From positions 20,245 to 84,244 of the forward strand of contig CP066698.1 in NCBI GenBank assembly GCA_016432645.1: a stretch of DNA of 64,000 nt, written 5' to 3'. The notes beneath the pieces were generated by a model. It saw only the letters and a program-made list of their open reading frames with translations. It did no database searches and was not told where the DNA came from. Within the stretch, counting starts at the first letter, position 1. Each line of letters starts with the position of its first letter. A program made the translations under genes and the position numbers. This document shows positions 3,255 through 23,971 of the stretch, piece by piece. This DNA is from Candidatus Falkowbacteria bacterium. Lineage in GTDB: Bacteria; Patescibacteriota; Patescibacteriia; Patescibacteriales; UBA12465.

Positions 3255-3348
3255 ATAAGGCCAATATAACAGTTTCCGCTTGAAAAATCAATCATTTTTA
3301 TGTTATCTTTATATAGATATGATATAATAATAACGAAATAGAAATATT

Positions 3349-5548: not shown

Positions 5549-5553
5549 AATAT

Positions 5554-6666
5554 ATGAAGCACAAAAAAGTTATTCTGGGCGCCTGTTTGGCCTTGTTGGG
5601 CTTGTCTTTATCCGCTTGCTCAATTTCCACCAACTCTTCCAATAATAGTGCTACTCAGGATAGCAGCGTCTTTCTCTCAACCGATAGCGGTAACACTTGG
5701 CGCACGGCCGCCGCTTTAGCGACTACCGGCCAGGCTCAGGACATCAAATCTTTGAATGTTAATACGATGGCCATGGACCCCTCGGATAATTTGGCGGTTT
5801 ATTTGGCGACTTATGAACATGGTTTGTATTATACTTATAATGTTTTAAATACCGGCTGGATTAAAGTTAAAAATCTGCCGGAGGCGACCATTAATGATGT
5901 TAAGGTTGACCCCAAAAGCAAATGCGTAATTTATGCCGCTGTTGCCAATCGTTTATATCGTTCCAGTGATTGCGCCCGTAATTGGGATCAGGTTTATTTT
6001 GATACCGACCCAGCCGTCAGCGTCAATGCGATTGTGGTGGATTTCTATAATACTAAAAATATTTATATCGGCACCTCGCGCGGCGAAATTATTAAAAGTA
6101 TTGATAGCGGCGCTTCTTGGCGGACCATCCGCCGCTTAGAAGAAGGTGTATCCCGCTTGATTATTTCGCCTTTGGACAGCCGCTTAATATTTGTCGCTTC
6201 TGCTAAGAATAAAATTTATAGCTTTACTTCCAACAGTGCGACTAACGCCGCCGATTCCGGCAATATTGACCAGAATTTCATGGTGGTTAATTGGAATGAT
6301 TTAAATACTGTTCTAAAAGATTATAATCTCGGTTCCTCATTTAAGGATTTTGTAGTTTGTGCGGCCGATGGTAAGATGTTTATCGCCACTAATCAAACTA
6401 TTCTGCGTTCTCCGGACAACGGCATTACTTGGGAGCAAATAAAACTCATCCAGCCTGATAAAGCGGCGACCGTCAACGCTTTAGCCGTTAATCCAAAAAA
6501 CTCCAATGAAATATATTATGTAACTAACACAACTTTCTTTAGCTCGACTGACGGCGGCGTTACTTGGGCTACCAAGAAGTTGCCGACAACGCGCGCCGGC
6601 CGCAATTTGTTAGTTGACTTTAATAATCCGAAAAATATTTATTTAGGCACCATAAAATTAAAATAA
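5554..6666 (+). CDS. Secreted lipoprotein with BNR/Asp-box repeats
   Basis: Signal peptide plus lipobox (LGLSLSAC). Four S-x-D-x-G-x-T-W Asp-boxes: STDSGNTWR, SIDSGASWR, SPDNGITWE, STDGGVTWA. Confidence 0.6.
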   Translation: MKHKKVILGACLALLGLSLSACSISTNSSNNSATQDSSVFLSTDSGNTWRTAAALATTGQAQDIKSLNVNTMAMDPSDNLAVYLATYEHGLYYTYNVLNTGWIKVKNLPEATINDVKVDPKSKCVIYAAVANRLYRSSDCARNWDQVYFDTDPAVSVNAIVVDFYNTKNIYIGTSRGEIIKSIDSGASWRTIRRLEEGVSRLIISPLDSRLIFVASAKNKIYSFTSNSATNAADSGNIDQNFMVVNWNDLNTVLKDYNLGSSFKDFVVCAADGKMFIATNQTILRSPDNGITWEQIKLIQPDKAATVNALAVNPKNSNEIYYVTNTTFFSSTDGGVTWATKKLPTTRAGRNLLVDFNNPKNIYLGTIKLK

Positions 6667-6673
6667 AAAATAT

Positions 6674-7228
6674 ATGAATCAATATTTAGCAGACAAACAA
6701 GGTGATTTTTCTAACGCGATTGATTTTTTCAAAAAAGAAATCGCGACTCTTCGCACCGGCCGCGCTAATCCGGCAGTTTTAGATGGCATTCAAGTTGAGG
6801 CTTACGGCGTCATGAATCCGCTTAATACCGTCGCTAATATCGCAGTTTCGGATGCGCGCAATATTTTGATTGCCGCCTGGGATAAGGGGGTTTTAAAAAA
6901 TATTGAAAAGGCGATTGTGGATGCCGGATTGGGCTTGGGAGTTGTTAATGAGGGTGACAAAATTCGCCTAACCGTACCCGCTTTAACCGAGGAAAATCGT
7001 AAAGATTTAGTAAAAAAGCTTAATGAAAAAATGGAAAAAACCAGAGTTATCTTGCGTCAAGTCCGCGAAGCGATAAAAAATACCATTGAAAAGGCTCACG
7101 ATGATAAAGAAATGAGCGAGGATGATAAATTCCGCTTTATTAAGGAGCTTGATGAATTTTCCGCGCGCAAGAATGAGGAACTAAAAGATGTGCGCGATCG
7201 CAAGGAAAAAGATATCATGGAGATTTAA
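6674..7228 (+). CDS. frr: Ribosome recycling factor
   Basis: 184 aa with strong similarity to RRF (VEAYGVMNPLNTVANIAVSDARNILIAAWDK...LTVPALTEENRKDLVKK). Confidence 0.9.
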   Translation: MNQYLADKQGDFSNAIDFFKKEIATLRTGRANPAVLDGIQVEAYGVMNPLNTVANIAVSDARNILIAAWDKGVLKNIEKAIVDAGLGLGVVNEGDKIRLTVPALTEENRKDLVKKLNEKMEKTRVILRQVREAIKNTIEKAHDDKEMSEDDKFRFIKELDEFSARKNEELKDVRDRKEKDIMEI

Positions 7229-8966: not shown

Positions 8967-11498
8967 ATGCCCAAGCAGATTATCTCCTATGAAGGTAAAA
9001 ATCAGGAGCTAGAAACCGTTGATTTAATAAGCCGGCTGGCCGCCGCTAACGATAACGCCGCTTTATCTACGGAAAAATTACAGGCCGTGGCCGCTGAAGC
9101 CTGGCAAACTCTTTATGAAGATATGCCGGAACACGAAGTAGACAAGGCACTTATGCAGGCCGCCGCCCAGCATATTAAGGATGACCCGGATTATGATAAG
9201 TTAGCGGCCGCTTTATTTTTAAAATCAATTTATCGCGAAGTCCTGGGTCTTGATTCCAGTGCGCCCGATTTTTTGGAAGTTTATCGTAGCGGCCTGAAAA
9301 AAGAGTTGCGTTTGGGAATTGACAAAGGCTGGCTGTCGCCTAAGCTACAACGCTTTGATCTTGATAAGCTGGCTGCTATTTTAGACCCGTCTCGCGATGG
9401 ACTTTTTACTTACGCCGGTATTGAAACCCTATCCCGCCGTTATATGATGCGCGATGAAAAGCAGCGCTTAACCGAAGTGCCGCAGTATTTTTGGCTGCGT
9501 GTTTCTATGGGTTTAGCCTGGAACGAAGCGGAACCGGATATTATTGCCGCTGCTTTTTACGAGCGCATGTCTAAGCTTTATTATATTTCCGGCGGCTCTA
9601 CCAACGTTAATGCCGGCGCGCTCAAACCGCGTCTTAGCAATTGTTTTATTATGGAGATGGAAGATAACGTCGACCATATCGGTAAGACCGTTTCTGATGT
9701 TTTAAAATTATCCAAAGCAACCGGCGGCATCGGTTTAGCCGTGACCAAGCTGCGCGCCAGCGGTTCGCCGATTTCCACCAACAATACTTTTTCTTCCGGT
9801 CCCGTGCCCTTTTTACATATCATTGATTCCGCTATCCGGGCAATTTCCCGGGCCGGCAAGAAAATGGGCGCCCTCTGTTTCTATATGGAAAATTGGCATT
9901 ATGATTTTCAAGAATTTTTAGATTTAAAACAGAACGCCGGCGATGATTATCGCCGCACGCGGACGGCTAATACTGCCGTTTATTTATCTGATGAATTTAT
10001 GAAGCGGGTTAAAAACGATGAATATTGGTATTTGTTTGATCCGCAAGAAACACCGGATTTAATTGATTTATACGGCGAGGATTTTAGTGTCCGCTATCAA
10101 AAGTATTGCCATTTAGCCGAGCAGGGTGAAATGCGGGTCTTTAAGAAAGTTAAGGCGCAGGATCAATTCCGGCAGATTATTGTTTCTTTACAAGCTTCGG
10201 CGCATCCCTGGATAACTTTTAAAGATACAATTAATGTCCGCGCTTTAAATAATAATACCGGAACGATTTATGGCTCTAATCTTTGTACCGAGATTACTTT
10301 GCCAACCAATAAGGATAATGTCGCGGTCTGTAATTTAGCATCTATCAATTTGGTTAGACACTTGAAAGAGGAAAACGAAAAATTCAGTGTTGATTGGTTG
10401 GAGCTGGAGCGGAGCGTCCGTTTAGCCGTCCGTCAGCTGGATAATTTAGTGGATATTAATGAGCCGCCGATAATTGAAGCGCGTAATTTTGACAGCCACA
10501 ACCGCGCTGTGGGTTTGGGCGTGATGGGGCTGGCGGATATGTTTGAAAAATTTGATATCGCTTATGACTCTCAAGAAGCCTATGAACTGAGCGACGCCGT
10601 TATGGAGTTTATCAGTTATCAAGCGATTGATGCCAGCGCTAATTTAGCGCAAGAGCGCGGCGCTTATGACAATTTCTACGGTTCCATGTGGTCTAAGGGT
10701 TATGTACCGCTTGATACTGTTAAAGTTTTAGAGCATGGTCGTGATAATCTGGAAAGTTCGGAAATTAATACTTCTTTTCGTTTGGATTGGGATAAATTGC
10801 GTCTCAAGGTAAAGCAGGGAATGCGTAATTCAACTTTAATGGCGGTTGCTCCAACAGCGAACATTGGTTTGGTAGCGGGAACTTCAACCGGGATTGATCC
10901 TCGTTTTGCCCAGATTTTTAGCCGCAACACCCTCGGCGGCAAACACTTAGAATTAAATGTTAATCTGGTTAATAAGCTGAAAAAATTAAATCTTTGGGAG
11001 CGCGCTAAAGATGATATTTTGGCTTCTTATGGCGATATCAGCGGCTTGGATTATATCCCGGAAAATATTAAACATATTTATAAAGATTCTTTCTCTGTTG
11101 ATCCGCAAGCTTTTGTGGAAGTTGCTTCGCGTTCTCAAAAATGGGTTGACCAAGCGATTAGCCGCAATATGTATTTGGCAACCAGAGAAATTGATGAGGT
11201 GATGAATGTTTATATTAAGGCTTGGGAGAAGGGCTTGAAGACCACTTATTATTTACACATGAAGCCTCGCCACAGCGCCGAACAATCAACGGTTGCCGTT
11301 AATAAATCAACCGCTATTGGCAAGGCTGGATTTGGAGCGGTGGCCAAAAAAGTTGGTTTTGGAGCCACGGTGGTAGCGACCAGTGCGGAATTAGAAAAAG
11401 TGGCGACCCCAGTTGAAGTTAAAATTGAAGAATCTGTTCAATTTAAGGCCTGTCCAACTGATCCTCAGGAGCGCGCTCAGTGCGATAGCTGCCAATAA
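8967..11498 (+). CDS. nrdA: Ribonucleoside-diphosphate reductase class I alpha subunit
   Basis: 843 aa with the catalytic-site NLCTEI motif and a C-terminal Cys pair (CPTDPQERAQCDSC). It is followed immediately by an R2 subunit gene. Confidence 0.85.
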   Translation: MPKQIISYEGKNQELETVDLISRLAAANDNAALSTEKLQAVAAEAWQTLYEDMPEHEVDKALMQAAAQHIKDDPDYDKLAAALFLKSIYREVLGLDSSAPDFLEVYRSGLKKELRLGIDKGWLSPKLQRFDLDKLAAILDPSRDGLFTYAGIETLSRRYMMRDEKQRLTEVPQYFWLRVSMGLAWNEAEPDIIAAAFYERMSKLYYISGGSTNVNAGALKPRLSNCFIMEMEDNVDHIGKTVSDVLKLSKATGGIGLAVTKLRASGSPISTNNTFSSGPVPFLHIIDSAIRAISRAGKKMGALCFYMENWHYDFQEFLDLKQNAGDDYRRTRTANTAVYLSDEFMKRVKNDEYWYLFDPQETPDLIDLYGEDFSVRYQKYCHLAEQGEMRVFKKVKAQDQFRQIIVSLQASAHPWITFKDTINVRALNNNTGTIYGSNLCTEITLPTNKDNVAVCNLASINLVRHLKEENEKFSVDWLELERSVRLAVRQLDNLVDINEPPIIEARNFDSHNRAVGLGVMGLADMFEKFDIAYDSQEAYELSDAVMEFISYQAIDASANLAQERGAYDNFYGSMWSKGYVPLDTVKVLEHGRDNLESSEINTSFRLDWDKLRLKVKQGMRNSTLMAVAPTANIGLVAGTSTGIDPRFAQIFSRNTLGGKHLELNVNLVNKLKKLNLWERAKDDILASYGDISGLDYIPENIKHIYKDSFSVDPQAFVEVASRSQKWVDQAISRNMYLATREIDEVMNVYIKAWEKGLKTTYYLHMKPRHSAEQSTVAVNKSTAIGKAGFGAVAKKVGFGATVVATSAELEKVATPVEVKIEESVQFKACPTDPQERAQCDSCQ

Positions 11499-11519: not shown

Positions 11520-12500
11520 ATGATACTTGGAAAACCATTAAATGAAGATATGAATCTGCGTCCCATAAAATATCAGTGGGCCTATGATTTATATAACCAA
11601 GCGGTCGCCAATACTTGGTTCCCGCACGAAATCGCGCTCGGTGAAGACTTGGATGATTGGCGCAAAATGGATGAAGATGAAAAGCAGGCCGTTAGTTTTT
11701 TAATGAGCTTTTTTAATCCCGGCGAGCTGATTGTAAATCGGACGCTGGCGCTTGGCGTCTATCCTTATTTAAAAGCGCCGGAAGCTCATTTATATCTGGC
11801 GAAGCAAATGTGGGAAGAGGCAAATCATTGCGTCGCCTTTGAATATGTTTTAGAAACTTTTCCGCTGAATAAAGAAAAGATTTTTGCCCAGCATTTGGAA
11901 ATTCCGTCTATTAAAGCGAAAGAAGATTTTATTGCCAAGTTTTTAAATCGCATGAGCGACACCAGTCTAGATATTGAAAGTTTAGAGGGGAAACAAGAAT
12001 TCGTCCGCAACTTAGTCGCTTATAATATCGTGATGGAAGGCACTTGGTTTTATTCCGGCTTTATGGTTGCCCTTTCTTTCCGCCAAAAGCAGAAGTTGAA
12101 GAATTTTGGTTCGATGATTGACTGGGTCGTGCGCGATGAAAGTTTGCATCTTAAATTCGGCATTAATTTGATTTTAACGATCTTGGAAGAAAATCCGGAA
12201 ATCGCAACGGCCGAGTTTGCCGAAGAAATTAAAAATATTGTTATTGACGGTGTTAATTTGGAAACCGCCTATAATCGTGATTTGTTCCCGCGCGGAATTT
12301 TAGGTATCAACGCTGATTATGTTAACCAGTATGTAGAGTATGTGGCTGACAGGCGTTTGGAAGAATTAGGCTTTGAGCCGCATTTTAATACGGTTAATCC
12401 GGCGCAGTGGATGGCGACCGAGACAGATACCCTGGAACTCGTCAACTTCTTTGAGGCTCAAAATACTAAATACGAGGTTGATAACCGGGCGCATAAGTAA
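11520..12500 (+). CDS. nrdB: Ribonucleoside-diphosphate reductase class I beta subunit (ferritin-like R2)
   Basis: 326 aa with the di-iron ligand motifs EEANHCVAFEYV and RDESLHLKF, and a conserved Tyr radical region (MEGTWFYSGF). Confidence 0.85.
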   Translation: MILGKPLNEDMNLRPIKYQWAYDLYNQAVANTWFPHEIALGEDLDDWRKMDEDEKQAVSFLMSFFNPGELIVNRTLALGVYPYLKAPEAHLYLAKQMWEEANHCVAFEYVLETFPLNKEKIFAQHLEIPSIKAKEDFIAKFLNRMSDTSLDIESLEGKQEFVRNLVAYNIVMEGTWFYSGFMVALSFRQKQKLKNFGSMIDWVVRDESLHLKFGINLILTILEENPEIATAEFAEEIKNIVIDGVNLETAYNRDLFPRGILGINADYVNQYVEYVADRRLEELGFEPHFNTVNPAQWMATETDTLELVNFFEAQNTKYEVDNRAHK

Positions 12501-12626: not shown

Positions 12627-14240
12627 ATGAAAAAAGATGACAGTATTGTTTTGTCTAAGCCTGAAATCAGGCCGATTTTGAATCCTCAGGATTCAGTGAA
12701 AGTCGTTTTAAACGGCGGCGTCTATCAGCTTGATGATGCAACTATTCCTTTTCGGATGGGTTTTAGTCAGAAGATTGCCGAAAAGAAACCAACCCATGTC
12801 ATGGTTATAGATATAACCGATGATGCCTTCTATCCAAACGGTAATCGTAAGAATTCCGACTCTGTATCTGAGAGAAGTTTATTCACTCTTGAGCCAATAA
12901 ATTATCTTCAGTTAAAAAAATCGGGCGAACATCACTTGATTTTCCTACTTTTTAACGAATTTCCAAAGTATCAGTATGAGCAATTATTATCAAAGAGAAT
13001 CGGCTACGATCATGCTATCGGTTTCTCGCAGATGGAGAATAATAAGGTTCTATTTTATCAAGTAGGATACTGTGAGGTTATAATTAACGTTCCGAAAGAA
13101 CTTTTTGCCAAGAAACCGGAAACCAAATGGTCAAAAGCCGTTTGGAATTGGGTTAATTCCTGGCACAAACTTACGCCGGTAGACGAATGTGAATACCGGA
13201 AACGCAAGATTTTTGCTTTTACCGGTAAGCCTATTATTTGGTTTTTGGGATTTTTGGCCCGTTTGGTGATCGTCTCCATAGTAACGCTTTTACAGTTTAT
13301 TGTGAGAGTTATTTGCCTTATTTTCGGCTATCAGCCGGTTAAATTTTTCCCGCATTTTAAAGAAGCGTGGATAGATTTTCTTTGTCGTTATTCGCAATCG
13401 TCCTTAAAGATGGATCGAATATTTGATGTTGCTGATTATTGGTTCGGAACAACGGTGTCCTTGAAAAACTTTGAAGTCGCTAATGAAGATGAAGAAGATT
13501 TTCATGAATACAAAGAGCATCACTTTTTCGGTTGGAAATTCCATTTGCCAATTACAATTTTTGGCTTTGTATTCTATGTTGGAGGAATATCTATGTATTT
13601 AGTTTTATTAGCTTCGATGTTCTCCTTTGATGGTGTTAGCTTTATCGGTAGTATTGGCGCTCTGGTTTTTACTCTCTTTATTTCTGTTTTAGCTTCTTCG
13701 CTTTTAGCCTTTAATACTTTGCCGACTTTATATGGCAATCAAAATTGGAAAAGAAAATGGGATAGGTTTGAGCTGGATTATAATAACCGGCGTCCTAAAA
13801 TTTTTAGAAATAGTATTATTGCGTCTGGCGGCTTAGCAGTACTAGTTTTTCTTATTTCTGCCTTGGCTCGTTTTATGATGAGTCGTCCGGCTCAAGAAGC
13901 TCCAAGCGAGCCTTCATCTACGGATTTGAGGTTTGTTCTCATCATTGCCGGTTTTATTCTTTTGTATTTTTTATTTTTGTTTATTGCCCGTCTGGTTTCA
14001 CCTTTTTTTAAGAAGGTAGGTAAAAAGGCAAAAACAAAAGTTACCGCTATTGTTAGTGAATCAAAAAAAACCAAAGAAATCAAAAGAGTTGAATGGTTAA
14101 AGAAAAGCTTTAATCTTGAAACAATGCCTGAAAAGGTTGATGTCGCCAAGGCTCCCGAGCCTTCGGTTTTTGTCCATCGTTTTACGATTAAGTTCTGGCA
14201 GGCTAAAGCTAAAGTTTGCCGCCCCTATGCTAAAAATTAA
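12627..14240 (+). CDS. Hypothetical polytopic membrane protein (orphan)
   Basis: 537 aa: a ~190-aa hydrophilic N-terminal domain, about 6 predicted TM helices, and a Lys-rich C-terminal tail. I recognise no motif. It has its own promoter and terminator. Confidence 0.55.
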   Translation: MKKDDSIVLSKPEIRPILNPQDSVKVVLNGGVYQLDDATIPFRMGFSQKIAEKKPTHVMVIDITDDAFYPNGNRKNSDSVSERSLFTLEPINYLQLKKSGEHHLIFLLFNEFPKYQYEQLLSKRIGYDHAIGFSQMENNKVLFYQVGYCEVIINVPKELFAKKPETKWSKAVWNWVNSWHKLTPVDECEYRKRKIFAFTGKPIIWFLGFLARLVIVSIVTLLQFIVRVICLIFGYQPVKFFPHFKEAWIDFLCRYSQSSLKMDRIFDVADYWFGTTVSLKNFEVANEDEEDFHEYKEHHFFGWKFHLPITIFGFVFYVGGISMYLVLLASMFSFDGVSFIGSIGALVFTLFISVLASSLLAFNTLPTLYGNQNWKRKWDRFELDYNNRRPKIFRNSIIASGGLAVLVFLISALARFMMSRPAQEAPSEPSSTDLRFVLIIAGFILLYFLFLFIARLVSPFFKKVGKKAKTKVTAIVSESKKTKEIKRVEWLKKSFNLETMPEKVDVAKAPEPSVFVHRFTIKFWQAKAKVCRPYAKN

Positions 14241-14260: not shown

Positions 14261-14293
14261 GCCGCCGGTCAATAGATCGGCGGTTTTTTTATT
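14261..14293 (+). terminator. Rho-independent terminator after the orphan membrane gene
   Basis: CCGCCG (14262-14267) pairs with CGGCGG (14278-14283) around a 10-nt loop, followed by TTTTTTTATT. Confidence 0.7.
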
Positions 14294-14416: not shown

Positions 14417-17152
14417 ATGAGTATTTTTAGCAAGTTGTTTCCTGATGCCAATCAGAAAGTAATTGACAGCCTGAAACCAACAGTCGCCAAGATAAATAGT
14501 TTAGAAAAAGAGTATCAAGCTTTGAGCCCGGAAGATTTAAAATCTAAGACGGCTGATTTTAAAATGCGCTTAGAAAAGGGTTCAACTTTAGACGATGTTT
14601 TGCCGGAAGCTTTTGCAGCCGTTCGAGAAGCGTCGGTGAGAATTTTGGGGCAAAGACATTACGATGTTCAGCTTATTGGTGGCATCGTGCTTCATCGTGG
14701 CCAAATAGCGGAAATGCGTACCGGCGAAGGCAAAACTTTAGTCGCGACTTTGCCGCTTTATTTAAATGCCCTTGATGGCCAAGGGGTTCATTTAATTACT
14801 GTTAATGATTACTTAGCGCGCGTCGGCGCTGGTTGGATGGCGCCAGTTTATTATGCTCTAGGACTAACAACAAGTGTTATCGTTCATGATAACGCTTATG
14901 TTTATGATCCGGAATATATTGATGAGAGCCAATTTGATGAGCGCTTGCAGCATTTCCGTCGCGTACCGCGCCGCGATGCTTATTATTGCGACATAACTTA
15001 TGGAACCAATAACGAGTTTGGTTTTGATTATTTGCGCGACAATATGGTTTATACGCTGGCACAAACAGTACAAAGACCCCTTCATTATGCCATTGTTGAT
15101 GAAATTGATTCTATTTTAATTGATGAGGCGCGCACCCCTTTAATTATTTCCGCACCAGCTGAAGAGTCGGGCGAAAAATATGCCCGCTTTGCACAAATAG
15201 TTGAACATCTTGAAGAAAATGATGATTATAATGTTGATGAAAAAATGCGTGCCGCGACTTTAACTGAAGGCGGGATTGCAAAAGTAGAAAAAATCTTAGG
15301 TTTGGGAAATATTTATGTCGAAGGCGGCGTGAAGGAGGTTCATCACTTGGAGCAGGCCTTAAAGGCGCGCGTCTTATTCAAACGCGATAAAGATTATGTG
15401 GTTAAAGACGGCGAAATAGTTATCGTTGATGAATTCACCGGCCGCATGATGCCTGGCCGCCGTTATAGCGAGGGTTTACATCAAGCAATTGAAGCCAAGG
15501 AGGGTGTTAAGGTTCAAAAAGAATCTCAGACCATGGCCACGATTACTTTCCAAAACTTATTTAGAATGTATCACAAGTTGTCTGGTATGACCGGAACCGC
15601 GGCCACCGAAGCGGAAGAATTCCATAAAATTTATAATTTAGAAACGATTGTTATTCCAACTAACCGCCCGAATGTCCGAAAAGACATGAATGATTTAATT
15701 TATCGCACTGAAGAAGATAAGTTCAAGGCGGTTATCCGCGATGTTAAAGAACGCAGTGAAAAGGGCCAGCCGGTTTTAATTGGTACGATTTCCATTGAGA
15801 AGAACGAAATCCTAACGGAAATGATGGAACGTGAAGGACTAAGGCCGCAAATGTTAAATGCTAAAAACCATCAACGGGAAGCGGAAATTATCGCTCAGGC
15901 CGGACGCCGGGGAGCGATTACTCTGGCGACTAATATGGCCGGCCGCGGTGTTGATATTATTTTAGGAGGCAATCCTCCAGAGAAATCTGAGCAAGAGGCG
16001 GTTCAAGCCGCAGGAGGATTACATGTCATTGGCACGGAACGTCATGAATCGCGTCGTATTGATAACCAGTTGCGCGGCCGCGCCGGCCGCCAAGGCGATC
16101 CCGGTTCTTCACAGTTTTATGTTTCTACCGATGACGATTTGATGCGGATTTTCGGCGGCGACCGGATGAAGAATTTGATGAAGACTTTGAATGTCCCGGC
16201 CGATATGCCGATTGAAAATAAGATGATTTCCAAATCAATTGAAAGCGCCCAGAAAAAAGTTGAAGGCAATAATTTTGATATCCGCAAACATTTAGTTGAA
16301 TACGATGATGTTATTAATAAGCACCGGACTGCGATTTATCGTCGTCGCCGCGAAATAATTGATTTAAGTGAAGGAATTATTAAGTCGGAAGAAGGCGCGC
16401 CTAAAACTTTAGCGGAGATTGTTATTCCGATGGTTAAGGATGAAGTTAAAGGAGTTGTTGATTTTCATACTGCCGCTGAACAGGCTGCCGCTTGGAATCT
16501 CAAAGAAATTTTTGAAACCGTTAAAACTATTATGTCGGTTTCTGAAGAAGTTAAGGAAAAATTAAATTCTTTAGTTGCTGCCGGTGGGCGCCCAGAAATA
16601 ATCAGGGAAAATATAATTTCTTATTTAGAAACCGAAATTGAAAATCGCTATGCTCTTATGTCTGATAAGTTTTCAGCGGCGGGCGTTGATTTTAAAGAAA
16701 TAGAAAAGGGAATCCTTATTAGAACGATTGATAATTTTTGGGTTGAGCATTTGGAAACTGTTGACTACTTGCGCCGCGGCATCGGTTTGCGCGGCTATGG
16801 CCAGCGCGACCCGCTAGTGGAATATAAAAAGGAAGCTTATTTGATGTATCAAGAATTAAATAATTTAATTAATCGGGATGTTGCTTATTCAATTTTCAAG
16901 GCCGGAGAAGCTTTTGCGGCAGCCGCTGAACGAGCATTGGAAACTGAGGCGGTGAAAATGTTTGCTAATCAACCAGCCGCTAAATTGGAATTCACCGGTG
17001 CCCAAAAAGAAATGCATAAACAGGCGGAAGCGCGTAATACCGCCGACTTAGTTCATGAAAAGACTAAGGATGAAAGTGGCGAGAAGGTTGGCCGCAACGA
17101 TCCTTGTCCTTGCGGCAGCGGTTTGAAGTATAAAAAGTGTCATGGGAAATAA
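14417..17152 (+). CDS. secA: Preprotein translocase ATPase SecA
   Basis: The N-terminus MSIFSKLF...EMRTGEGKTLVATLPLYLNAL aligns with E. coli SecA. DEAD-like motor domains are present, and the C-terminal zinc-binding motif is CPCGSGLKYKKCHG. Start taken at ATG 14417 rather than the TTG at 14396 used by the ORF track. Confidence 0.9.
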   Translation: MSIFSKLFPDANQKVIDSLKPTVAKINSLEKEYQALSPEDLKSKTADFKMRLEKGSTLDDVLPEAFAAVREASVRILGQRHYDVQLIGGIVLHRGQIAEMRTGEGKTLVATLPLYLNALDGQGVHLITVNDYLARVGAGWMAPVYYALGLTTSVIVHDNAYVYDPEYIDESQFDERLQHFRRVPRRDAYYCDITYGTNNEFGFDYLRDNMVYTLAQTVQRPLHYAIVDEIDSILIDEARTPLIISAPAEESGEKYARFAQIVEHLEENDDYNVDEKMRAATLTEGGIAKVEKILGLGNIYVEGGVKEVHHLEQALKARVLFKRDKDYVVKDGEIVIVDEFTGRMMPGRRYSEGLHQAIEAKEGVKVQKESQTMATITFQNLFRMYHKLSGMTGTAATEAEEFHKIYNLETIVIPTNRPNVRKDMNDLIYRTEEDKFKAVIRDVKERSEKGQPVLIGTISIEKNEILTEMMEREGLRPQMLNAKNHQREAEIIAQAGRRGAITLATNMAGRGVDIILGGNPPEKSEQEAVQAAGGLHVIGTERHESRRIDNQLRGRAGRQGDPGSSQFYVSTDDDLMRIFGGDRMKNLMKTLNVPADMPIENKMISKSIESAQKKVEGNNFDIRKHLVEYDDVINKHRTAIYRRRREIIDLSEGIIKSEEGAPKTLAEIVIPMVKDEVKGVVDFHTAAEQAAAWNLKEIFETVKTIMSVSEEVKEKLNSLVAAGGRPEIIRENIISYLETEIENRYALMSDKFSAAGVDFKEIEKGILIRTIDNFWVEHLETVDYLRRGIGLRGYGQRDPLVEYKKEAYLMYQELNNLINRDVAYSIFKAGEAFAAAAERALETEAVKMFANQPAAKLEFTGAQKEMHKQAEARNTADLVHEKTKDESGEKVGRNDPCPCGSGLKYKKCHGK

Positions 17153-17157
17153 ATTTT

Positions 17158-17481
17158 ATGAAAACGCTAAAGTTTAGAAAAAATTTAGCAGAGGAAATAT
17201 TGGCCGGCCGGAAGACGGCAACTTGGCGTTTGTTTGATGATAAAGATTTGCAAATTGGCGATCAGGTTGAATTATTAGTTTGGGAAACTAAAGAAAAATT
17301 TGCTACCGCCGAGATTATCGCGCTTAAAGAAAAGAAATTACAAGACATTAAAGAGGAGGATTTTATTGGTCATGAAAAATTCGCGAGCCGCGAAGATATG
17401 CTTGAAAACTATCAATCTTTTTATGGCGATAAAGTAAATTGGGAGACGCCTATTAAAATGTTAGATTTTAAAATAATTTAG
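17158..17481 (+). CDS. ASCH-domain protein, YqfB-like (candidate modified-nucleoside amidohydrolase)
   Basis: 107 aa from ATG 17158. The motif EEILAGRKTATWRL matches the YqfB/ASCH signature (E. coli YqfB ...DDILAGRKTITIRD...). Confidence 0.65.
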   Translation: MKTLKFRKNLAEEILAGRKTATWRLFDDKDLQIGDQVELLVWETKEKFATAEIIALKEKKLQDIKEEDFIGHEKFASREDMLENYQSFYGDKVNWETPIKMLDFKII

Positions 17482-17486
17482 AAAAT

Positions 17487-18227
17487 ATGAGCTCTGAAAA
17501 GATGCCAAATTTTTCAGCTAGTCCGGAGAAAAAGAAAGAACTCGGTGCTTTGCAATATATTAATCTGCAAATGAAAGAAGCAATTTCTGAGGAAGACTAT
17601 GAACAAGCAGTCTGTCTGCGGGATATCCAAGAAAAATTAAGCAAAAATAATCAGCCGCTACCTTGTATTCGTCAGGAAGATATTCTGGAAGATGAAAAGG
17701 AAAAATCAGAGTCAGAGGACGAGGAGGATAGTCCGGCTATGAGAGCTTGGCAGGGAATTGAATCAAAGCAAATGGCTGATTTGTATGTTGGCAAAGATAT
17801 TGTTAAGTCATCTTCTTTTTCTCATTATTTAAAAGGCAATGATAAATATTTGGGCGGGTTTGCCAGGGAACTTTGGGATGATGTCAGACATTACAAGCAT
17901 CTTGAAGATTTAGACGAGAGAACTGATTATTTATCTTCTCTTCACAATTTATACAGCGAAGCGCAAGAGCTAAGAAATATTGCGAAAGCAAAGATTGATA
18001 ATATTTTTCAAATGTATAATAAGCGCGAACCGATTTTAAAAGCTGACACTGAAAGTATTCCGAAATATTTTCCGGGTCTGCCAAAAACGCAGGATATATT
18101 GCGTAAGAAAATGGAAGCGATGCCGGATTTTATCAGTGAACCGCTCGCTTATTGGAATGGTGTGTATGATAATTCTAGTCAAATCGCCGATGATTTAGAG
18201 CTGGCGATTAAAGAAATGACCGAATAA
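17487..18227 (+). CDS. Uncharacterised protein with N-terminal UVR-type motif (paralog A)
   Basis: 246 aa. The motif LQYINLQMKEAISEEDYEQAVCLRDIQEKL matches the UvrB/UvrC UVR domain pattern, then an acidic linker. The RAWQGIESKQ and C-terminal YWNGVYDNSSQIADDLELAIKE motifs are shared with the 18850 paralog. Confidence 0.6.
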   Translation: MSSEKMPNFSASPEKKKELGALQYINLQMKEAISEEDYEQAVCLRDIQEKLSKNNQPLPCIRQEDILEDEKEKSESEDEEDSPAMRAWQGIESKQMADLYVGKDIVKSSSFSHYLKGNDKYLGGFARELWDDVRHYKHLEDLDERTDYLSSLHNLYSEAQELRNIAKAKIDNIFQMYNKREPILKADTESIPKYFPGLPKTQDILRKKMEAMPDFISEPLAYWNGVYDNSSQIADDLELAIKEMTE

Positions 18228-18231
18228 ATTT

Positions 18232-18819
18232 ATGAATAACGATATTAATTTTTTATTTGAATTAGGCACAATGCGCAATGTGCCGCGCGCTTGGCGCCAG
18301 CATTTTGGTTTAGATTGCGCGAGCGTCCATGAGCACACTTATCGCGTTGTTTGGCTGGCTTTAATGTTAGCCCGGATGGAAAAGAATGTTGATGAAAATA
18401 AAATTATTAAAATGGCTCTAGTCCATGATATTTCTGAAATTAGAACTTCTGATTTAGGTTATATTCAAAAAGTTTATACTAAAGCGAACGATGACCAGGC
18501 GGCTCATGATTCTTTGGCGGAGACTATTTTTGCTGATTTTTATAGTGAGGTGTTTAAAGAATATGAAGAACGAAATTCTTTGGAAGCCAAAATTGTCAAA
18601 GATGCTGATAATTTGGATATTGATTTAGAACTGAAAGAGTTAGAAGAACGTGGTTCAAAACTACCAGCCAAATTACAAGATTTTCGCAAATTAGTCAGAA
18701 ATGAAAAATTATATACCGCATCCGCCAAAAAAGTTTGGGATGAAATCCAGGCAACCGACGTTTCCGATTGGCATCTGAAGGCTAATAAATGGGTGAAGAT
18801 GCCGGAAACCGGGAGATAA
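18232..18819 (+). CDS. HD-domain phosphohydrolase, YfbR-like 5'-deoxynucleotidase
   Basis: 195 aa with the H...HD...E metal-binding pattern (SVHEHTYRV...LVHDISEIRTSDL...DADNLD), which aligns with E. coli YfbR. Confidence 0.75.
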   Translation: MNNDINFLFELGTMRNVPRAWRQHFGLDCASVHEHTYRVVWLALMLARMEKNVDENKIIKMALVHDISEIRTSDLGYIQKVYTKANDDQAAHDSLAETIFADFYSEVFKEYEERNSLEAKIVKDADNLDIDLELKELEERGSKLPAKLQDFRKLVRNEKLYTASAKKVWDEIQATDVSDWHLKANKWVKMPETGR

Positions 18820-18849
18820 TTTTTATTAATTCGTATTAATTTTAAATGT

Positions 18850-19578
18850 ATGGGTTTGGAAAAAATGGAAATGACTCCGCGTACCTCCGAACTTAAAAAA
18901 GAAAATCCGGATTTAAAATTGGTTTCGGCTCAGTTGGATGAAGCGATAAAACAGGAGGACTTTGAACAAGCAGCGATCTTGCGCGATTATTTGCAGGAAC
19001 ACGCCAGTCAAGGTGATGCCTATGAATTAAATAAAAAAGATTTTATTGAGCCAACCAGAGGCGGCGTTTATATTTTTCTTAAAAATAATCCTCGCCATCG
19101 TGCTTGGAAAGGGATAGAAGAAAAGCAAGAGCGGTATTTTTATGAAGACAAAGAAAAGGTTGATAAGAGCCGTTTTGCCGGAGATTTAACTTTTTTGCCT
19201 CGGACTTATGGAGTCCTAGAAGAAGATGATTGGCAAAAAATCAGGAATTTGAAGGAAACTCGAGGTGGAGATAAAGTAGACATGATGATTAGTTTGCAAG
19301 ATAAGATTGCCGAAGCAAAAAGTTTAGTAGATTTAGCAGAGGAAAAATTTCAGCGTCTCTGGCAACCATATTGCAAGAAACATGGGCTAGCCGGGCAGGA
19401 ATTTGAAGAAATGCACAGTCTCTATAATGAAGCCGCCGGCTGGACGGAAGAAAAAAATAGTTTTCTCAACCAAATTCCTAGAAGTTTAGGCGACCCTTTA
19501 CGCTACTGGCAGAATGTTTATGATAATTCGCGGTTTATCAGAGACGAACTAGAAAAGGCCTTGGCGGAATTGCAATAG
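18850..19578 (+). CDS. Uncharacterised protein with N-terminal UVR-type motif (paralog B)
   Basis: 242 aa. The UVR-like motif is LVSAQLDEAIKQEDFEQAAILRDYLQE. It shares RAWKGIEEKQ and the C-terminal YWQNVYDNSRFIRDELEKALAEL with paralog A. Confidence 0.6.
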   Translation: MGLEKMEMTPRTSELKKENPDLKLVSAQLDEAIKQEDFEQAAILRDYLQEHASQGDAYELNKKDFIEPTRGGVYIFLKNNPRHRAWKGIEEKQERYFYEDKEKVDKSRFAGDLTFLPRTYGVLEEDDWQKIRNLKETRGGDKVDMMISLQDKIAEAKSLVDLAEEKFQRLWQPYCKKHGLAGQEFEEMHSLYNEAAGWTEEKNSFLNQIPRSLGDPLRYWQNVYDNSRFIRDELEKALAELQ

Positions 19579-19606
19579 TTTATTATTTATTTTTTAATAA
19601 ACCAAT

Positions 19607-19996
19607 ATGAAATCAGTCGTGATGTGTGGCAGCTCCAGTTTTGCTTCCGAGATGAGAGACTTTTCTGAGCGTCTTAAAAATTTAGGCGCGGTTGTTTATG
19701 AGCCTCATCTTTATCGCGCTTCTGGCGGCGTTTGGAGTGAGATTAAAGAATCTGATCGTAAATATGTGGCGCTTGGTTTGACTCATGATCATTTTTATAA
19801 AATGCGCATGGCTGACGTAATTTATGTTTATAATAAGGATGGTTATGCGGGGGTAAGCGTTAATATGGAAATTGGTTATGCTGTCGCGCTTAATAAGCCG
19901 ATTTATGTCCAAGATGAAAATGATGCCGAACCTTGCCGTAAAGCGTTATTTAGCGGCGTTGTTAAAACCCCAGAAGAATTGATAAAATTTTTATAA
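19607..19996 (+). CDS. Nucleoside 2-deoxyribosyltransferase / DNPH1 (Rcl)-fold protein
   Basis: 129 aa. The N-terminus VVMCGSSSFASEMRDFSERLKNLGAVVYEPH, together with ADVIYVYNKDGYAGVSVNMEIGYAVALNKPIYV, matches the PF05014 pattern (compare human DNPH1 YFCGSIRGG... and ADVVVAEVTQPSLGVGYELGRAVAFNKRIL). Confidence 0.55.
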   Translation: MKSVVMCGSSSFASEMRDFSERLKNLGAVVYEPHLYRASGGVWSEIKESDRKYVALGLTHDHFYKMRMADVIYVYNKDGYAGVSVNMEIGYAVALNKPIYVQDENDAEPCRKALFSGVVKTPEELIKFL

Positions 19997-20000
19997 TTTA

Positions 20001-20474
20001 ATGAAGAAATTAACACTAGTTATAATTTATCAAAATGGCCAAGTGTTGCTCGGAATGAAAAAGCGCGGTTTTGGAGCGGGCCGTTGGAATGGTTTTGGCG
20101 GCAAAGTTGAAGAAGGCGAGGCTATTGAAGAAGCGGCGGCGCGTGAGTTATTTGAAGAGGCAAATATTGTAGCTGGTGATTTGCTGGAAGTGGGAGTTTT
20201 AAACTTTAACTTTGCCGACGCGACGCCTGATTTAGAGGTCTATGTTTTCCGAGTTGATAAATTTTCCGGTGAGCCGCAAGAAACCGAAGAAATGCGGCCG
20301 CAATGGTTTAAGATTAATGATATTCCTTATAAGAAGATGTGGGCGGATGATATTTTCTGGTTACCCCTATTAATTAACGGGGAGAAATTCAAGGGTGAGT
20401 TTGTTTTTGATAAGCCTTCAACCGCCGAATACGCCGCCAAAATAATTAGCCAAAAATTAGAAATTAGCAAATAA
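20001..20474 (+). CDS. Nudix hydrolase, MTH1/NUDT1-like oxidised-purine nucleoside triphosphatase
   Basis: 157 aa with the Nudix box GGKVEEGEAIEEAAARELFEEANI. The segment LGMKKRGFGAGRWNGFGGKV is essentially identical to the corresponding segment of human MTH1, as are MRPQWF and DIPYKKMWADDIFWLPLL. Confidence 0.75.
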   Translation: MKKLTLVIIYQNGQVLLGMKKRGFGAGRWNGFGGKVEEGEAIEEAAARELFEEANIVAGDLLEVGVLNFNFADATPDLEVYVFRVDKFSGEPQETEEMRPQWFKINDIPYKKMWADDIFWLPLLINGEKFKGEFVFDKPSTAEYAAKIISQKLEISK

Positions 20475-20489
20475 ATTTTTTAATATTAT

Positions 20490-23400
20490 ATGAATAAGCC
20501 AGCAGAAAAAGAAAAAACAAAAAGCCCCTATGTCTCAATGGAAGAAGAGGCTTTAGCTTTTTGGAATAATTCTAAAATTTTTGAAAAATCTCTCGCGCAA
20601 GAGGCGCCTAAAGGCGATTATGTTTTTTATGACGGCCCCCCATTTGCTACCGGCACGCCGCATTACGGGCATTTAGTTGCTAGTATAATGAAAGATGTCG
20701 TACCACGTTATTTTACGATGAATGGTTACCATGTAGAGCGAAAATGGGGCTGGGATTGCCACGGTTTGCCGATTGAAAATATTGTGGAAAAAGAATTAGG
20801 AACTAAACAGAAAAAAGATATTGAAGAACTCGGTGTTGGTAAGTTTAATGATATTTGTCGTTCTAAAGTGATGACTTATGCCGGCGAATGGGAGAAAGTT
20901 ATTAATCGTTTGGGCCGCTGGGTAGATATGAAAAATTCGTACCGCACCATGGATTTGAATTTTATGGAATCGGTTTGGTGGGTTTTTAAGGAATTATGGG
21001 ATAAGGATTTGATTTATCAAGATTATCGTTCCATGCATATTTGTCCGCGCTGTGAAACGACTTTGTCGCAATCGGAAGTAACCGAAGGTTATCGCGATAT
21101 TAAGGATTTAAGCGCGATTGCGAAGTTTGAATTAGTTGATGAGCCGGGAACTTTCATTTTAGCCTGGACAACAACGCCTTGGACTTTAATCGGTAATGTC
21201 GCTTTGGCCGTTGGCCAGGAGATTGAATACGTGAAAATTAAAATGGATGACGTTCAATATATTGTCGCTAAAGAACGGTTGGCAACGATAATTTTTCCAG
21301 GGTATTCAATCGTTAATGTTAGCAGTGAAAAAAATGAGGTTTTGGCTAGAAAAGGATCTAATGATAGTGATGAAACATATGATATTAAAATAATCAACGG
21401 CAATGAGCTTGTCGGCAAATCCTATAAACCCCTATTCAGCTATTACGCGAGTGATACTAAATTAGCCAATCATGATAATGGCTGGAAAATTTACGCTGGT
21501 GATTTTGTAACCACGACTGATGGCACCGGTGTCGTTCATATTGCACCCGCTTTCGGCGAGGACGATATGAATTTAGGCAAAGCCAATAATTTACCTTTTG
21601 TTCAACACGTTGGTATGGATGGCATTTTTAAACCGGAAGTCACTGATTTTCCCGGGATGCATGTTAAGCCGATTGGCGACCACACTACAACCGATATAGA
21701 GATTATTAAATATTTAGCCAAGAATGGATTGTTATTTCATAAAGAAAAATATGAACATAGTTATCCGCACTGCTGGCGATGCGATACGCCACTGATTAAT
21801 TACGCGACCTCTTCTTGGTTTGTGAGTGTTAGCAAAATTAAAGATGGCTTGCTAGAGAGCGCTAAAAAAATCAATTGGTTCCCGGAACATATTAAAGAAG
21901 GCCGCTTCGGTAATTGGTTGGAGGGCGCGCGTGATTGGTCTATTTCTCGTCAGCGTTTTTGGGCCAGTGCTATTCCAATCTGGGAATGCGCCTGCGGCGA
22001 GCGCCAGGTTATCGGCAGTGTCGCGGAATTAGAAAAATTAAGCGGCCAGAAAATAGATGATATTCATAAAGATAAAGTTGACGGTTTAACTTTTGCTTGC
22101 GCTAAATGCGGCGGCGCCATGAAGCGCATCCCGGACGTTTTGGATTGTTGGTTTGAGTCCGGCTCTATGCCTTATGCTCAGTATCATTATCCCTTTGAAA
22201 ATAAAGAAAAGGTTGAGCAGAATTTTCCGGCGAAATTCATCGCTGAAGGCGTTGATCAAACTCGTGCTTGGTTCTATTATCTCCATGTCATTTCCGGCGG
22301 CATCAAGAAAAGCCACGCTTTTGAAAATGTGATTGCTAACGGCATTGTGTTAGCTGAAGATGGCAAAAAGATGTCTAAGCGCTTGCAAAATTATCCCGAT
22401 CCTTATTTGGTGATGGAAAAATATGGCGCCGATGCTCTGCGCGCCCAACTTTTATCTTCACCGGTCATGGCCGCCGAAAATTTAAATTTTTCAGAAAAGG
22501 GAACCGAGGAGTCTTTACGCAAGAACATCATGCTGCTCTTTAATGTTTATAAGTTCTATGAGCTCTATGCGCAAGAAAATCAGGAAATTATTTTAGATTT
22601 AAGCTATGGCGATTTAAAGAACGAAGTTTTAAATAGCGATAACGTTTTAGATAAATGGCTGATGTTAAAGTTTAATGCGCTACTAGCGGAAGTCGGAGCA
22701 GGAATGGAAGCTTATAACTTGCCGAAAGCAGTGCGGCCAATTACCGAGTTTATTGATGAGTTTTCTACTTGGTATTTAAGAAGAAGCCGTGATCGGTTTA
22801 AGTCGGATGATGAGACTGATAAGAAAAATGCGCTACTGACCACTAAATTGATAATGTCGGAATTAGCTAAAGTAATGGCGCCATTTATGCCGTTTATGGC
22901 GGAGAATTTATGGCAGAAATTAAATGGGCTAGATTTTCAAAATGGCCAAGCATCAGTTCATTTAGAATCTTGGCCGGTCTTTCTTAAAATAGAAAAAGAT
23001 GAAACTCTGGAAAAGATGGCCATGGTCAGAAGGATTGTGGAAATTGGTTTAGCCAAACGCGACGTCGCGGGTATTAAGATTAGACAGATGCTGAACCAAG
23101 CGATTGTGAAAGGCAGCATCGATTTAGAGGAGGCTTATCAGGAATTAATTAAAGATGAACTTAATATTAAGAGTTTGGATTTGGCGGCTGGTTTTGAAAA
23201 CCTGGAAGTAGAATTAGATATAGAGATTACCCCAGAACTTAGGTTGGAAGGAATTAAGCGCGAACTTATTCGCTTTATTAATTTATCGCGCAAGGATGCC
23301 GGTCTTAGTTTAGGAGATAAGGTTGATGTGGAAATTATTTCAGAGTCGGCGGAAATTTCTGAAGCCGTTAAAAAATTAGGCGCTGAGATTGCCAAAGAAA

Positions 23401-23510
23401 CTTTAAGCGAATCATTAGTTTTAGCTGCCGAAACCTCAACCTCTGATTTTAGTAAAGAAATAAAGATTGACGGGCAGCCGGTGGTTATTAATTTGAAAAT
23501 AATTAAATAA
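20490..23510 (+). CDS. ileS: Isoleucyl-tRNA synthetase, type 2 (eukaryote-like)
   Basis: 1006 aa. PFATGTPHYGHLVASIMKDVVPRYFTMNGYHVERKWGWDCHGLPIE matches the cytosolic-type IleRS HIGH region. Also carries KMSKR and Zn Cys motifs (CPRCET, CWRCDTP). Confidence 0.9.
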   Translation: MNKPAEKEKTKSPYVSMEEEALAFWNNSKIFEKSLAQEAPKGDYVFYDGPPFATGTPHYGHLVASIMKDVVPRYFTMNGYHVERKWGWDCHGLPIENIVEKELGTKQKKDIEELGVGKFNDICRSKVMTYAGEWEKVINRLGRWVDMKNSYRTMDLNFMESVWWVFKELWDKDLIYQDYRSMHICPRCETTLSQSEVTEGYRDIKDLSAIAKFELVDEPGTFILAWTTTPWTLIGNVALAVGQEIEYVKIKMDDVQYIVAKERLATIIFPGYSIVNVSSEKNEVLARKGSNDSDETYDIKIINGNELVGKSYKPLFSYYASDTKLANHDNGWKIYAGDFVTTTDGTGVVHIAPAFGEDDMNLGKANNLPFVQHVGMDGIFKPEVTDFPGMHVKPIGDHTTTDIEIIKYLAKNGLLFHKEKYEHSYPHCWRCDTPLINYATSSWFVSVSKIKDGLLESAKKINWFPEHIKEGRFGNWLEGARDWSISRQRFWASAIPIWECACGERQVIGSVAELEKLSGQKIDDIHKDKVDGLTFACAKCGGAMKRIPDVLDCWFESGSMPYAQYHYPFENKEKVEQNFPAKFIAEGVDQTRAWFYYLHVISGGIKKSHAFENVIANGIVLAEDGKKMSKRLQNYPDPYLVMEKYGADALRAQLLSSPVMAAENLNFSEKGTEESLRKNIMLLFNVYKFYELYAQENQEIILDLSYGDLKNEVLNSDNVLDKWLMLKFNALLAEVGAGMEAYNLPKAVRPITEFIDEFSTWYLRRSRDRFKSDDETDKKNALLTTKLIMSELAKVMAPFMPFMAENLWQKLNGLDFQNGQASVHLESWPVFLKIEKDETLEKMAMVRRIVEIGLAKRDVAGIKIRQMLNQAIVKGSIDLEEAYQELIKDELNIKSLDLAAGFENLEVELDIEITPELRLEGIKRELIRFINLSRKDAGLSLGDKVDVEIISESAEISEAVKKLGAEIAKETLSESLVLAAETSTSDFSKEIKIDGQPVVINLKIIK

Positions 23511-23512
23511 TT

Positions 23513-23908
23513 ATGGAACAAGAAAATATTAACAGTCCTGTTAATGCCGAACAAACTGTTAATTCCGGGTCCACATTTGACAAAGAAGAATCAATCCCTC
23601 CACAAGCTCAGAAGATAATGATGACTTTTTTTAGGTTTATCATGGGCAGAATCAAGTCTGTCTTGTTAATCCCGATAATTCTGCTTGTTTCCGCTTTAAT
23701 TAAGAATCGCGACTCTTTTTTTAGCGTTGAATCTCTAAGCTTTTTGGTGCCATTAATATTTCTGATTGTTTTTTATTTCCGTTCAGGCAACAAATTTTTA
23801 GATGATTTTGAGAAGGGCATGAAAAGTGTTAGATTTGACCCGGCTGAATATAAAACTGTCAGAATTGGATTTAAAAAGAAAGGCCAGGACGTTAACTTGA
23901 AAAAATAG
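23513..23908 (+). CDS. Hypothetical small membrane protein (2 TM)
   Basis: 131 aa with two hydrophobic helices (LLIPIILLVSALI; LSFLVPLIFLIVFYF). Start abuts the ileS stop. No recognised motif. Confidence 0.4.
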   Translation: MEQENINSPVNAEQTVNSGSTFDKEESIPPQAQKIMMTFFRFIMGRIKSVLLIPIILLVSALIKNRDSFFSVESLSFLVPLIFLIVFYFRSGNKFLDDFEKGMKSVRFDPAEYKTVRIGFKKKGQDVNLKK

Positions 23909-23971
23909 CCATTTTCTGTTATAATATTTTAAAGTTTTATAAATTAATTTAACAAAAATAATTAAAAATTT

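Follow-up and report, generated by a model that had tools for sequence, protein, structure and literature searches.

The subject of this analysis is a run of six genes in a 64,000-nucleotide (nt) stretch of a metagenome-assembled Candidatus Falkowbacteria genome; the whole stretch is referred to below as the window. The genes lie on the + strand at 17158-20474, and the open reading frame (ORF) map places them between secA (14417-17152) and ileS (20490-23510). In order, they encode an ASCH-domain protein, an acidic helical protein with a UVR motif (UVR-A), an HD-domain phosphohydrolase, a second UVR protein (UVR-B), a protein with the nucleoside 2-deoxyribosyltransferase (NDT) fold and an MTH1-like Nudix hydrolase. 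With moderate confidence, the six genes are interpreted as a lineage-specific and variable house-cleaning island that follows secA in Candidatus Falkowbacteria and related Patescibacteria. As a site of nucleotide cleaning the locus appears genuine, though its novelty is moderate. The enzymes are all new members of known families; the new aspect is their clustering in a conserved but variable slot together with the UVR proteins.

The packing of the genes in this locus does not go beyond chance, but their functional theme does, and so does the return of that theme in relatives. Loci from 14 relatives were compared with the window (15 loci altogether), the start of the slot being uncaptured in four of them. 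The slot after secA was found to contain a varying set of nucleotide hydrolases, including two MazG, up to five Nudix, Ham1/ITPase, HIT, extra ASCH, HD and NDT proteins. Within the window's clade, locus L005 reads nrdA-nrdB-secA and then MazG-MazG-Nudix-ASCH-UVRA-HD-UVRB-NDT-MTH1-ileS, and L001 reads DUF2000-MazG-MazG-Nudix-ASCH-UVRA-NDT-HD-UVRB-MTH1-ileS. MazG-ASCH-UVRA-NDT-HD-UVRB-MTH1-gmk is found in L008 and UVRA-HD-UVRB-MTH1-ileS in L010; L014 and L016 have the order of the window followed by gmk. More diverged relatives carry a single UVR gene, as in Nudix-MazG-Nudix-Nudix-UVR-NDT-MTH1-ileS (L043), HIT-UVR-Nudix-ASCH-ASCH-DUF1653-orf-Nudix-Nudix-MTH1-Nudix-orf-Ham1 (L040), UVR-Nudix-orf-Ham1 (L042), NDT-UVR-Nudix (L003) and UVR-orf80 only (L002). 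The UVR gene is missing from L048 (BroN-HD-NDT-MTH1-ileS, with a secA 88% identical to that of the window), from L047 (ASCH-orf30-DUF3850-NDT-orf100-ileS) and from L046 (several unknown ORFs, NDT, DUF1653, then secDF). The gene order is therefore kept within the window's clade, which is the synteny expected in an earlier note on this DNA. The nucleotide-sanitation theme put forward in the same note is supported as well, since the slot repeatedly holds different house-cleaning families across lineages: MazG, Ham1, HIT and additional Nudix and ASCH genes stand at the same place in the diverged relatives. Chance would not produce such a recurrence.

Two island haplotypes (L001/L008 and L005/L016/L014/L010) occur in genomes with equally similar secA (92-93%). 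In the L005/L016/L014/L010 haplotype, NDT follows UVR-B (L010 lacks NDT), and UVR identity to the window is 75-80%. In the L001/L008 haplotype, NDT is placed between UVR-A and HD, and UVR identity is only 53-65%. The HD protein is 93-94% identical in both. In L014, a truncated HD (84 amino acids, aa) and a truncated A-type UVR protein of 151 aa, which shares 80% identity with UVR-A of the window, are encoded between UVR-A and the intact HD at 2755-3641; these fragments suggest either that the UVRA-HD unit was partly duplicated in tandem or that the assembly is in error here. The Bro-N-HD-NDT-MTH1 run of L048, which lacks both UVR and ASCH, occupies 4550-6868, and its phage-type Bro-N gene suggests that the slot is an insertion hotspot.

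Some further details of the relatives' slots may be added. The Nudix gene directly 3' of secA in L043 (3917-4438) ends in a zinc-binding motif of the SEC-C type (PF02810, E 8e-6), as does SecA itself. Immediately 5' of Ham1/ITPase, L040 (10395-10619) and L042 (5769-5966) share a conserved Cys-rich ORF of 65-74 aa (CNWG.C..CG), for which no Pfam match was found. DUF1653 recurs in the slot, in L040 and L046.

All domain assignments proposed earlier for the six products (ASCH, UVR, HD, NDT fold and MTH1-like Nudix) were upheld by profile, PDB and fold searches. The first gene (17158-17481, + strand) encodes a 107-aa protein that matches the ASCH domain PF04266 at 43.9 bits (cutoff 21.2, E 4.2e-11). 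Its YqfB-like N-terminal motif is GRKTATWR, the YqfB counterpart being GRKTITIR. Residues K19, T22 and R24 align with Lys21, Thr24 and Arg26 of YqfB (1te7/9kyf), the catalytic roles of which have been described (PMC6972931). The ASCH domain and the catalytic Lys, Thr and Arg are shared with E. coli YqfB and human EOLA1, whereas the score with the NCBIfam ac4C (N4-acetylcytidine) amidohydrolase equivalog is 31.4 bits, below its cutoff of 93, and covers model positions 5-69 only. Equivalents of YqfB His70, Glu74 and Tyr89 were not located, the C-terminal half of the protein being unaligned and a possible HE...FY not confidently placed. The predicted product is best described as an ASCH protein with a YqfB-like motif rather than as a YqfB orthologue. 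Its surroundings also differ from published ASCH gene contexts, which are TmcA and restriction-modification systems; here they are Nudix, HD and NDT genes.

The HD-domain phosphohydrolase (18232-18819, + strand, 195 aa) belongs to the YfbR/HDDC2 group of 5'-deoxynucleotidases. It matches HD_3 (PF13023) at 79.9 bits (E 2.6e-22) and YfbR-like (PF12917) at 44.1 bits (cutoff 25.9). Among solved structures, it is most similar to the P. furiosus protein 1xx7 (9e-15) and human HDDC2 4dmb (1.4e-12); yeast YGL101W is also among its best solved relatives, and YfbR itself is a weak match (2paq, 0.009). The H...HD...D metal ligands align with those of 1xx7 as HEH, VHD and DAD. Thus, the protein passes both Pfam models and shares the metal ligands of the YfbR, HDDC2 and P. 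furiosus PF0395-type 5'-(deoxy)nucleotidases, but it is nearer to the archaeal/HDDC2 branch than to YfbR and remains below the NCBIfam YfbR equivalog PRK03826 (30.7 bits vs a cutoff of 122).

The NDT-fold protein (19607-19996, + strand, 129 aa) was assigned to the nucleoside 2-deoxyribosyltransferase/DNPH1/MilB superfamily. Its score with PF05014 is 25.4 bits, under the gathering score of 28.8, and that of the L043 orthologue is 27.5 bits; a precomputed PF05014 match exists in most of the 120 homologues listed. Sequence searches of the PDB gave nothing with the single sequence or a shallow profile, and a 30-sequence profile gave sub-threshold NDT matches only (E ~0.13). The assignment was settled by fold search, not by sequence search, and shows an NDT fold whose central strand ends with the catalytic Glu. 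In the same type of search, TIR domains scored similarly to NDT-superfamily folds. Compared with NDT, DNPH1/Rcl and MilB enzymes, the island protein is shorter and its similarity lies at the Pfam threshold; it represents a distinct, highly conserved Patescibacteria-wide family set apart from them. This family (129-130 aa) has more than 1,200 homologues, with identities of at least 60% for the 120 listed. The NDT gene was located in 11 loci, and in every one of them it occupies the slot after secA (the slot start being uncaptured in L003 and L014), and the protein is a candidate for the core enzyme of the slot.

The last product (20001-20474, + strand, 157 aa) is an MTH1/NUDT1-like Nudix hydrolase. 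A phmmer search of the PDB returned zebrafish and human MTH1 with E values of 1.8e-50 to 5e-44, and the alignment with zebrafish MTH1 is gap-free over 136 aa at 55% identity. The best non-MTH1 Nudix matches are at ~1e-9 or weaker (the next being 4.6e-9), with E. coli MutT (1mut) at 2.9e-5. The Nudix box GX5EX7REUXEEXGU is intact (GGKVEEGEAIEEAAARELFEEANI), and the motifs WNGFGG and MWADD are present; the latter two contain the equivalents of the hMTH1 base-recognition residues Asn33, Trp117, Asp119 and Asp120. Full-length similarity and motif residues together place the protein in the MTH1 subfamily, with the activity predicted accordingly from sequence. It misses the NCBIfam MutT equivalog cutoff, and bacterial MutT is distant from it (E 1e-5 to 1e-9). 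The protein shares its Nudix box, WNGFGG and MWADD with vertebrate MTH1 and differs from it in being encoded by a bacterium of the Patescibacteria and in a hydrolase island. This vertebrate-like MTH1 is the most surprising single item of the locus and may point to a transfer between eukaryotes and bacteria or to an ancient MTH1 lineage within Patescibacteria.

The two genes interleaved with the enzymes encode acidic, all-helical proteins, UVR-A (17487-18227, + strand, 246 aa), with an N-terminal UvrB/UvrC-type motif, and UVR-B (18850-19578, + strand, 242 aa). Proteins of unassigned function in the earlier note, they are paralogues, as it had supposed: BLASTP aligns them over the full length at 30% identity (E 1e-27). 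UVR-B exceeds the PF02151 cutoff of 21.5 bits (26.4 bits) and UVR-A remains under it (19.4 bits). The motif is present in 23 of 28 family members (best E 3.1e-8), and PF02151 was the only Pfam model matched by the 28; weak NCBIfam matches were to UvrC and McsA. In UvrB and UvrC, the UVR motif is a hairpin for protein-protein interaction. The matching segment here, residues 20-57, is modelled as such a helical hairpin and is followed by a helical domain at 81-241 in a wholly helical AlphaFold2 model (pLDDT 81.6, pTM 0.75). Unlike UvrB and UvrC, the island proteins have no nuclease or helicase domain. With isoelectric points of 4.8 and 5.1 and a GRAVY of -0.9, both are acidic, hydrophilic proteins; inspection by eye, in which no prediction tool was used, showed neither a signal peptide nor a membrane feature. 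The conserved residues outside the motif are mostly aromatic or core-like (RAW-G, W-PY, PL-YW--VYDNSR), and no catalytic signature was seen among the conserved positions. The remaining ~180 residues gave no Pfam, PDB or viral structure match.

This family is previously unrecognised and very narrowly distributed. It forms 20 clusters among 5.8 billion proteins, and an exhaustive search with a hidden Markov model (HMM) through 1.84 billion representatives recovered about 20 relatives over their full length, every further match being confined to the ~35-aa UVR motif. A GTDB genome scan keyed on the motif yielded mostly unrelated UVR-motif genes, with two true loci; the metagenome scan for relatives used an alignment of the C-terminal part. 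Compared with close relatives, in which secA is 92-93% identical, UVR-A is 65-81% and UVR-B 53-79% identical, while the intervening HD retains 93-94%. The UVR genes have a nonsynonymous rate (dN) 3-8 times as high as HD or secA, and its ratio to the synonymous rate (dN/dS) is 0.05-0.16, a rough value with dS near saturation. Purifying selection was found on all six island genes (dN/dS 0.03-0.16, equally rough with dS near saturation). The UVR genes evolve fast, yet they are real genes under constraint. A neighbour-joining tree joins the A-type and B-type clades as sisters, nested in single-copy diversity; UVR-A and UVR-B derive from one ancestral gene. Every more diverged locus recovered with a UVR gene has a single copy, and in all duplicated loci (L001, L005, L008, L010, L014, L016 and the window) the copies flank the HD gene.

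The UVR proteins are not integral to the enzyme set, as the relatives show: L048 has HD-NDT-MTH1 without UVR, and L002 has UVR alone. The narrower possibility that they are obligate HD subunits was rejected, as the HD of L048 is 93% identical without any UVR gene and L002, L040, L042 and L043 have UVR without HD. Since UVR genes are found without the enzyme genes and the reverse is also found, UVR is dispensable and is to be regarded as accessory, not as an obligate subunit.

The arrangement of the six genes was found base-exact in the ORF map as it had been described, on one strand and 4-30 nt apart between secA and ileS. The gaps are, in order, 5, 4, 30, 28 and 4 nt, with 5 nt from the secA stop (17152) to the first island gene and 15 nt from the last one to the ileS start (20490). 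Tight same-strand packing is a property of the whole window, in which the + strand carries 57 of 65 ORFs and gaps are mostly below 60 nt, and because of this the spacing is no evidence of an operon or of a common function. A terminator-like hairpin upstream of secA (14261-14284, + strand; a 10-bp stem with 7 G-C pairs, then a T run) is the probable 5' boundary of the transcription unit. The best downstream promoter-like site, before lemA (23897-23925, + strand; 11 of 12 positions matched, with an extended -10 TG), is the probable start of the next one. Between 14978 and 23020, the consensus scan detected nothing terminator-like on the + strand. These scans suggest one long unit, not a private six-gene unit; it would start with secA, include the island and ileS and extend to a 131-aa ORF. 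For the single operon proposed in the earlier note, then, the lack of an internal terminator-like site speaks in favour, but the spacing argument is uninformative and the predicted unit is longer, from secA through the 131-aa ORF.

The flanks differ in their conservation. On the left, secA is constant; its orthologues begin with MSIFSKLF, and the relatives show Pfam SecA domains. On the right, the neighbour is not conserved: gmk replaces ileS downstream in L008, L014, L016 and L041. The island had been described as feeding into ileS, and this adjacency does not hold among relatives; a functional link to ileS was rejected in view of the four loci with gmk in its place. Upstream of secA, the window carries the genes of the large (8967-11498, + strand) and small (11520-12500, + strand) subunits of ribonucleotide reductase according to the ORF map. 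The orthologous pair lies immediately 5' of secA in L005 (Pfam Ribonuc_red_lgN/lgC and Ribonuc_red_sm) and L016. Ribonucleotide reductase upstream and gmk downstream in four loci extend the nucleotide theme. A predicted multi-pass membrane protein of 537 aa is encoded between nrdB and secA in the window (12627-14240); its gene is missing in L005 and L016, where nrdB adjoins secA. No Rfam element, tRNA or island-boundary repeat was found at the island, and D2 and D12, the sole repeats of note, correspond to conserved motifs common to both UVR paralogues. A HIT-family gene (MCIFCKIV...) is located outside the island at 34531-34926 and is the single house-cleaning-type gene in the rest of the window; the HIT gene of L040 sits within the secA-downstream island.

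From the known activities of the families, a route through the island may be inferred. The MTH1-like Nudix would hydrolyse non-canonical or oxidised (d)NTP to (d)NMP and pyrophosphate, a step joined at the same place in relatives by MazG- and Ham1-type pyrophosphatases, further Nudix proteins and HIT. The YfbR/HDDC2-type HD enzyme would convert (d)NMP into nucleoside and phosphate. The NDT-fold enzyme would cleave the N-glycosidic bond or transfer it, so that the base is released or exchanged. The ASCH protein would strip the N4-acyl group from cytidine or cytosine and return the pyrimidine to salvage. Published work has shown that YqfB, an ASCH protein, contributes to salvage by deacetylating free ac4C, and a salvage role was proposed for human EOLA1 (PMC6972931; bioRxiv 10.64898/2026.08.01.741249). 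The island is probably read constitutively within the one long unit that includes secA and ileS. The UVR proteins, probably non-enzymatic, would act as an optional scaffold or regulator of the island and would pair through their helical hairpins as UvrB and UvrC do, most likely forming a homodimer when a single copy is present and an A/B heterodimer here. The position of both copies on either side of HD in every duplicated locus hints, with low confidence, at HD as their partner.

Patescibacteria, also known as the candidate phyla radiation (CPR), generally lack de novo nucleotide synthesis and must scavenge. The route outlined above would fit an organism living on scavenged nucleotides.

Several points weigh against this interpretation. 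The exact substrates named in the earlier note (ac4C, dNMPs and 8-oxo-dGTP) are a matter of homology only: the NCBIfam equivalog cutoffs for YqfB, YfbR and MutT were all missed, and the true substrates may differ. The NDT fold is common to TIR and MilB enzymes, and the predicted reaction could be that of a transferase or of a hydrolase acting on dNMP or CMP. Gene packing is tight genome-wide, and the co-location could partly reflect inherited gene position in a compact genome. The function of the UVR proteins has no structural or sequence clue in the fold, PDB and Pfam searches, and what links them to nucleotide metabolism is position only, as L002 and L048 illustrate. Moreover, ASCH proteins can target tRNA ac4C instead of free nucleosides (bioRxiv 10.64898/2026.02.27.708502).

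The locus could also be an inherited juxtaposition in which housekeeping hydrolases and unrelated helical proteins have gathered in a permissive insertion slot with no shared function. This is rather unlikely. The strand bias and the small gaps throughout the window agree with it, as does the free shift of slot content among genomes with secA 88-93% identical. The slot also accommodates Bro-N, a 23S-rRNA-IVP protein and several unknown ORFs, and in L002 UVR stands by itself. However, the slot is dominated in the 15 distinct loci by Nudix (up to five), MazG, HD, NDT, ASCH, Ham1 and HIT genes, a thematic recurrence hard to obtain by chance, and elsewhere in the 64-kb window there is just one such gene, that at 34531. 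It is distinctly unlikely that the UVR proteins neighbour the hydrolases by position only and serve some other process, either by working with SecA-linked secretion or quality control or by docking onto the UVR domains that UvrB, UvrC or Clp-type proteins carry. The secA-downstream slot is indeed the sole constant of UVR loci with a captured start, and the UVR gene adjoins secA in L002, L010 and L042; the interaction hairpin, the weak UvrC and McsA matches and the enzymes present in L048 without UVR genes would suit such a role too. But a family of ~20 representatives is too narrow for a general SecA or Uvr partner, both copies flank HD in every locus seen of the duplicated clade, and a secretory role is not favoured by proteins with a GRAVY of -0.9 in which no signal peptide or membrane feature was seen by eye, prediction tools not being used.

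An anti-phage or conflict module is very unlikely. Its hydrolases would deplete hypermodified dNTPs and dNMPs or signalling nucleotides, and the UVR proteins would be its sensors or regulators. The variable content and order of the island, the rapid UVR divergence (dN 3-8 times that of HD or secA), the two diverged haplotypes despite equally similar flanks, the Bro-N gene in L048 and the similarity of NDT and TIR folds are what such a module might show. The Nudix protein also matches the PADLOC candidate single-gene model PDC-S07, and the HD protein matches phrog_7076, annotated as "dATP triphosphohydrolase". Against this, PDC-S07 is a generic model and the other five island proteins have no PADLOC match; the HD protein is of the monophosphatase class and not a depleter of the SAMHD1/dGTPase type. 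The island showed no mobile gene, tRNA or boundary repeat, and no phage or viral-contig match was obtained with UVR-B or the MTH1-like protein, the only two searched; for UVR-B the negative covers viral contigs, INPHARED and BFVD. Conservation is at a housekeeping level, both in HD (93-94%) and in the broad NDT family with its >1,200 homologues (the 120 listed at least 60% identical), and dN/dS is far below 1. The housekeeping flanks and the absence of mobile genes, on which the earlier note had based its own doubt about a defence function, were borne out, and beyond the generic Nudix match there was no defence gene either. Also quite improbable is a reading in which the UVR proteins are a new, hairpin-paired regulator family gating the island nucleotidases, restraining HD and NDT to spare the canonical dNMPs of an organism that cannot make nucleotides itself, or forming an innate barrier against phages that rely on hypermodified nucleotide pools. 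If this gating were true, fast UVR divergence beside a 93-94% identical HD would mean co-evolution with changing partners or phage factors.

The house-cleaning island after secA is built, in the window and its relatives, from the families of house-cleaning NTP pyrophosphatases (MutT, MazG, RdgB/Ham1 and dUTPase). In model bacteria, house-cleaning genes are scattered round the chromosome; in this island, one conserved slot holds up to about nine such genes, accompanied by one for a lineage-specific UVR protein. No description of such a hydrolase cluster in the CPR was found in the literature searched. Scavenging Patescibacteria take in damaged and modified bases supplied by their hosts and environment. 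If the interpretation is true, a dedicated MTH1/MazG/Ham1/Nudix/HD/NDT/ASCH locus would indicate how ultra-small symbionts clean their scavenged pools. Current ideas would not be overturned by this; the house-cleaning concept would be extended to a clustered form, and the locus offers a vertebrate-like bacterial MTH1, a Patescibacteria-wide NDT-fold enzyme and a new, narrow helical family.

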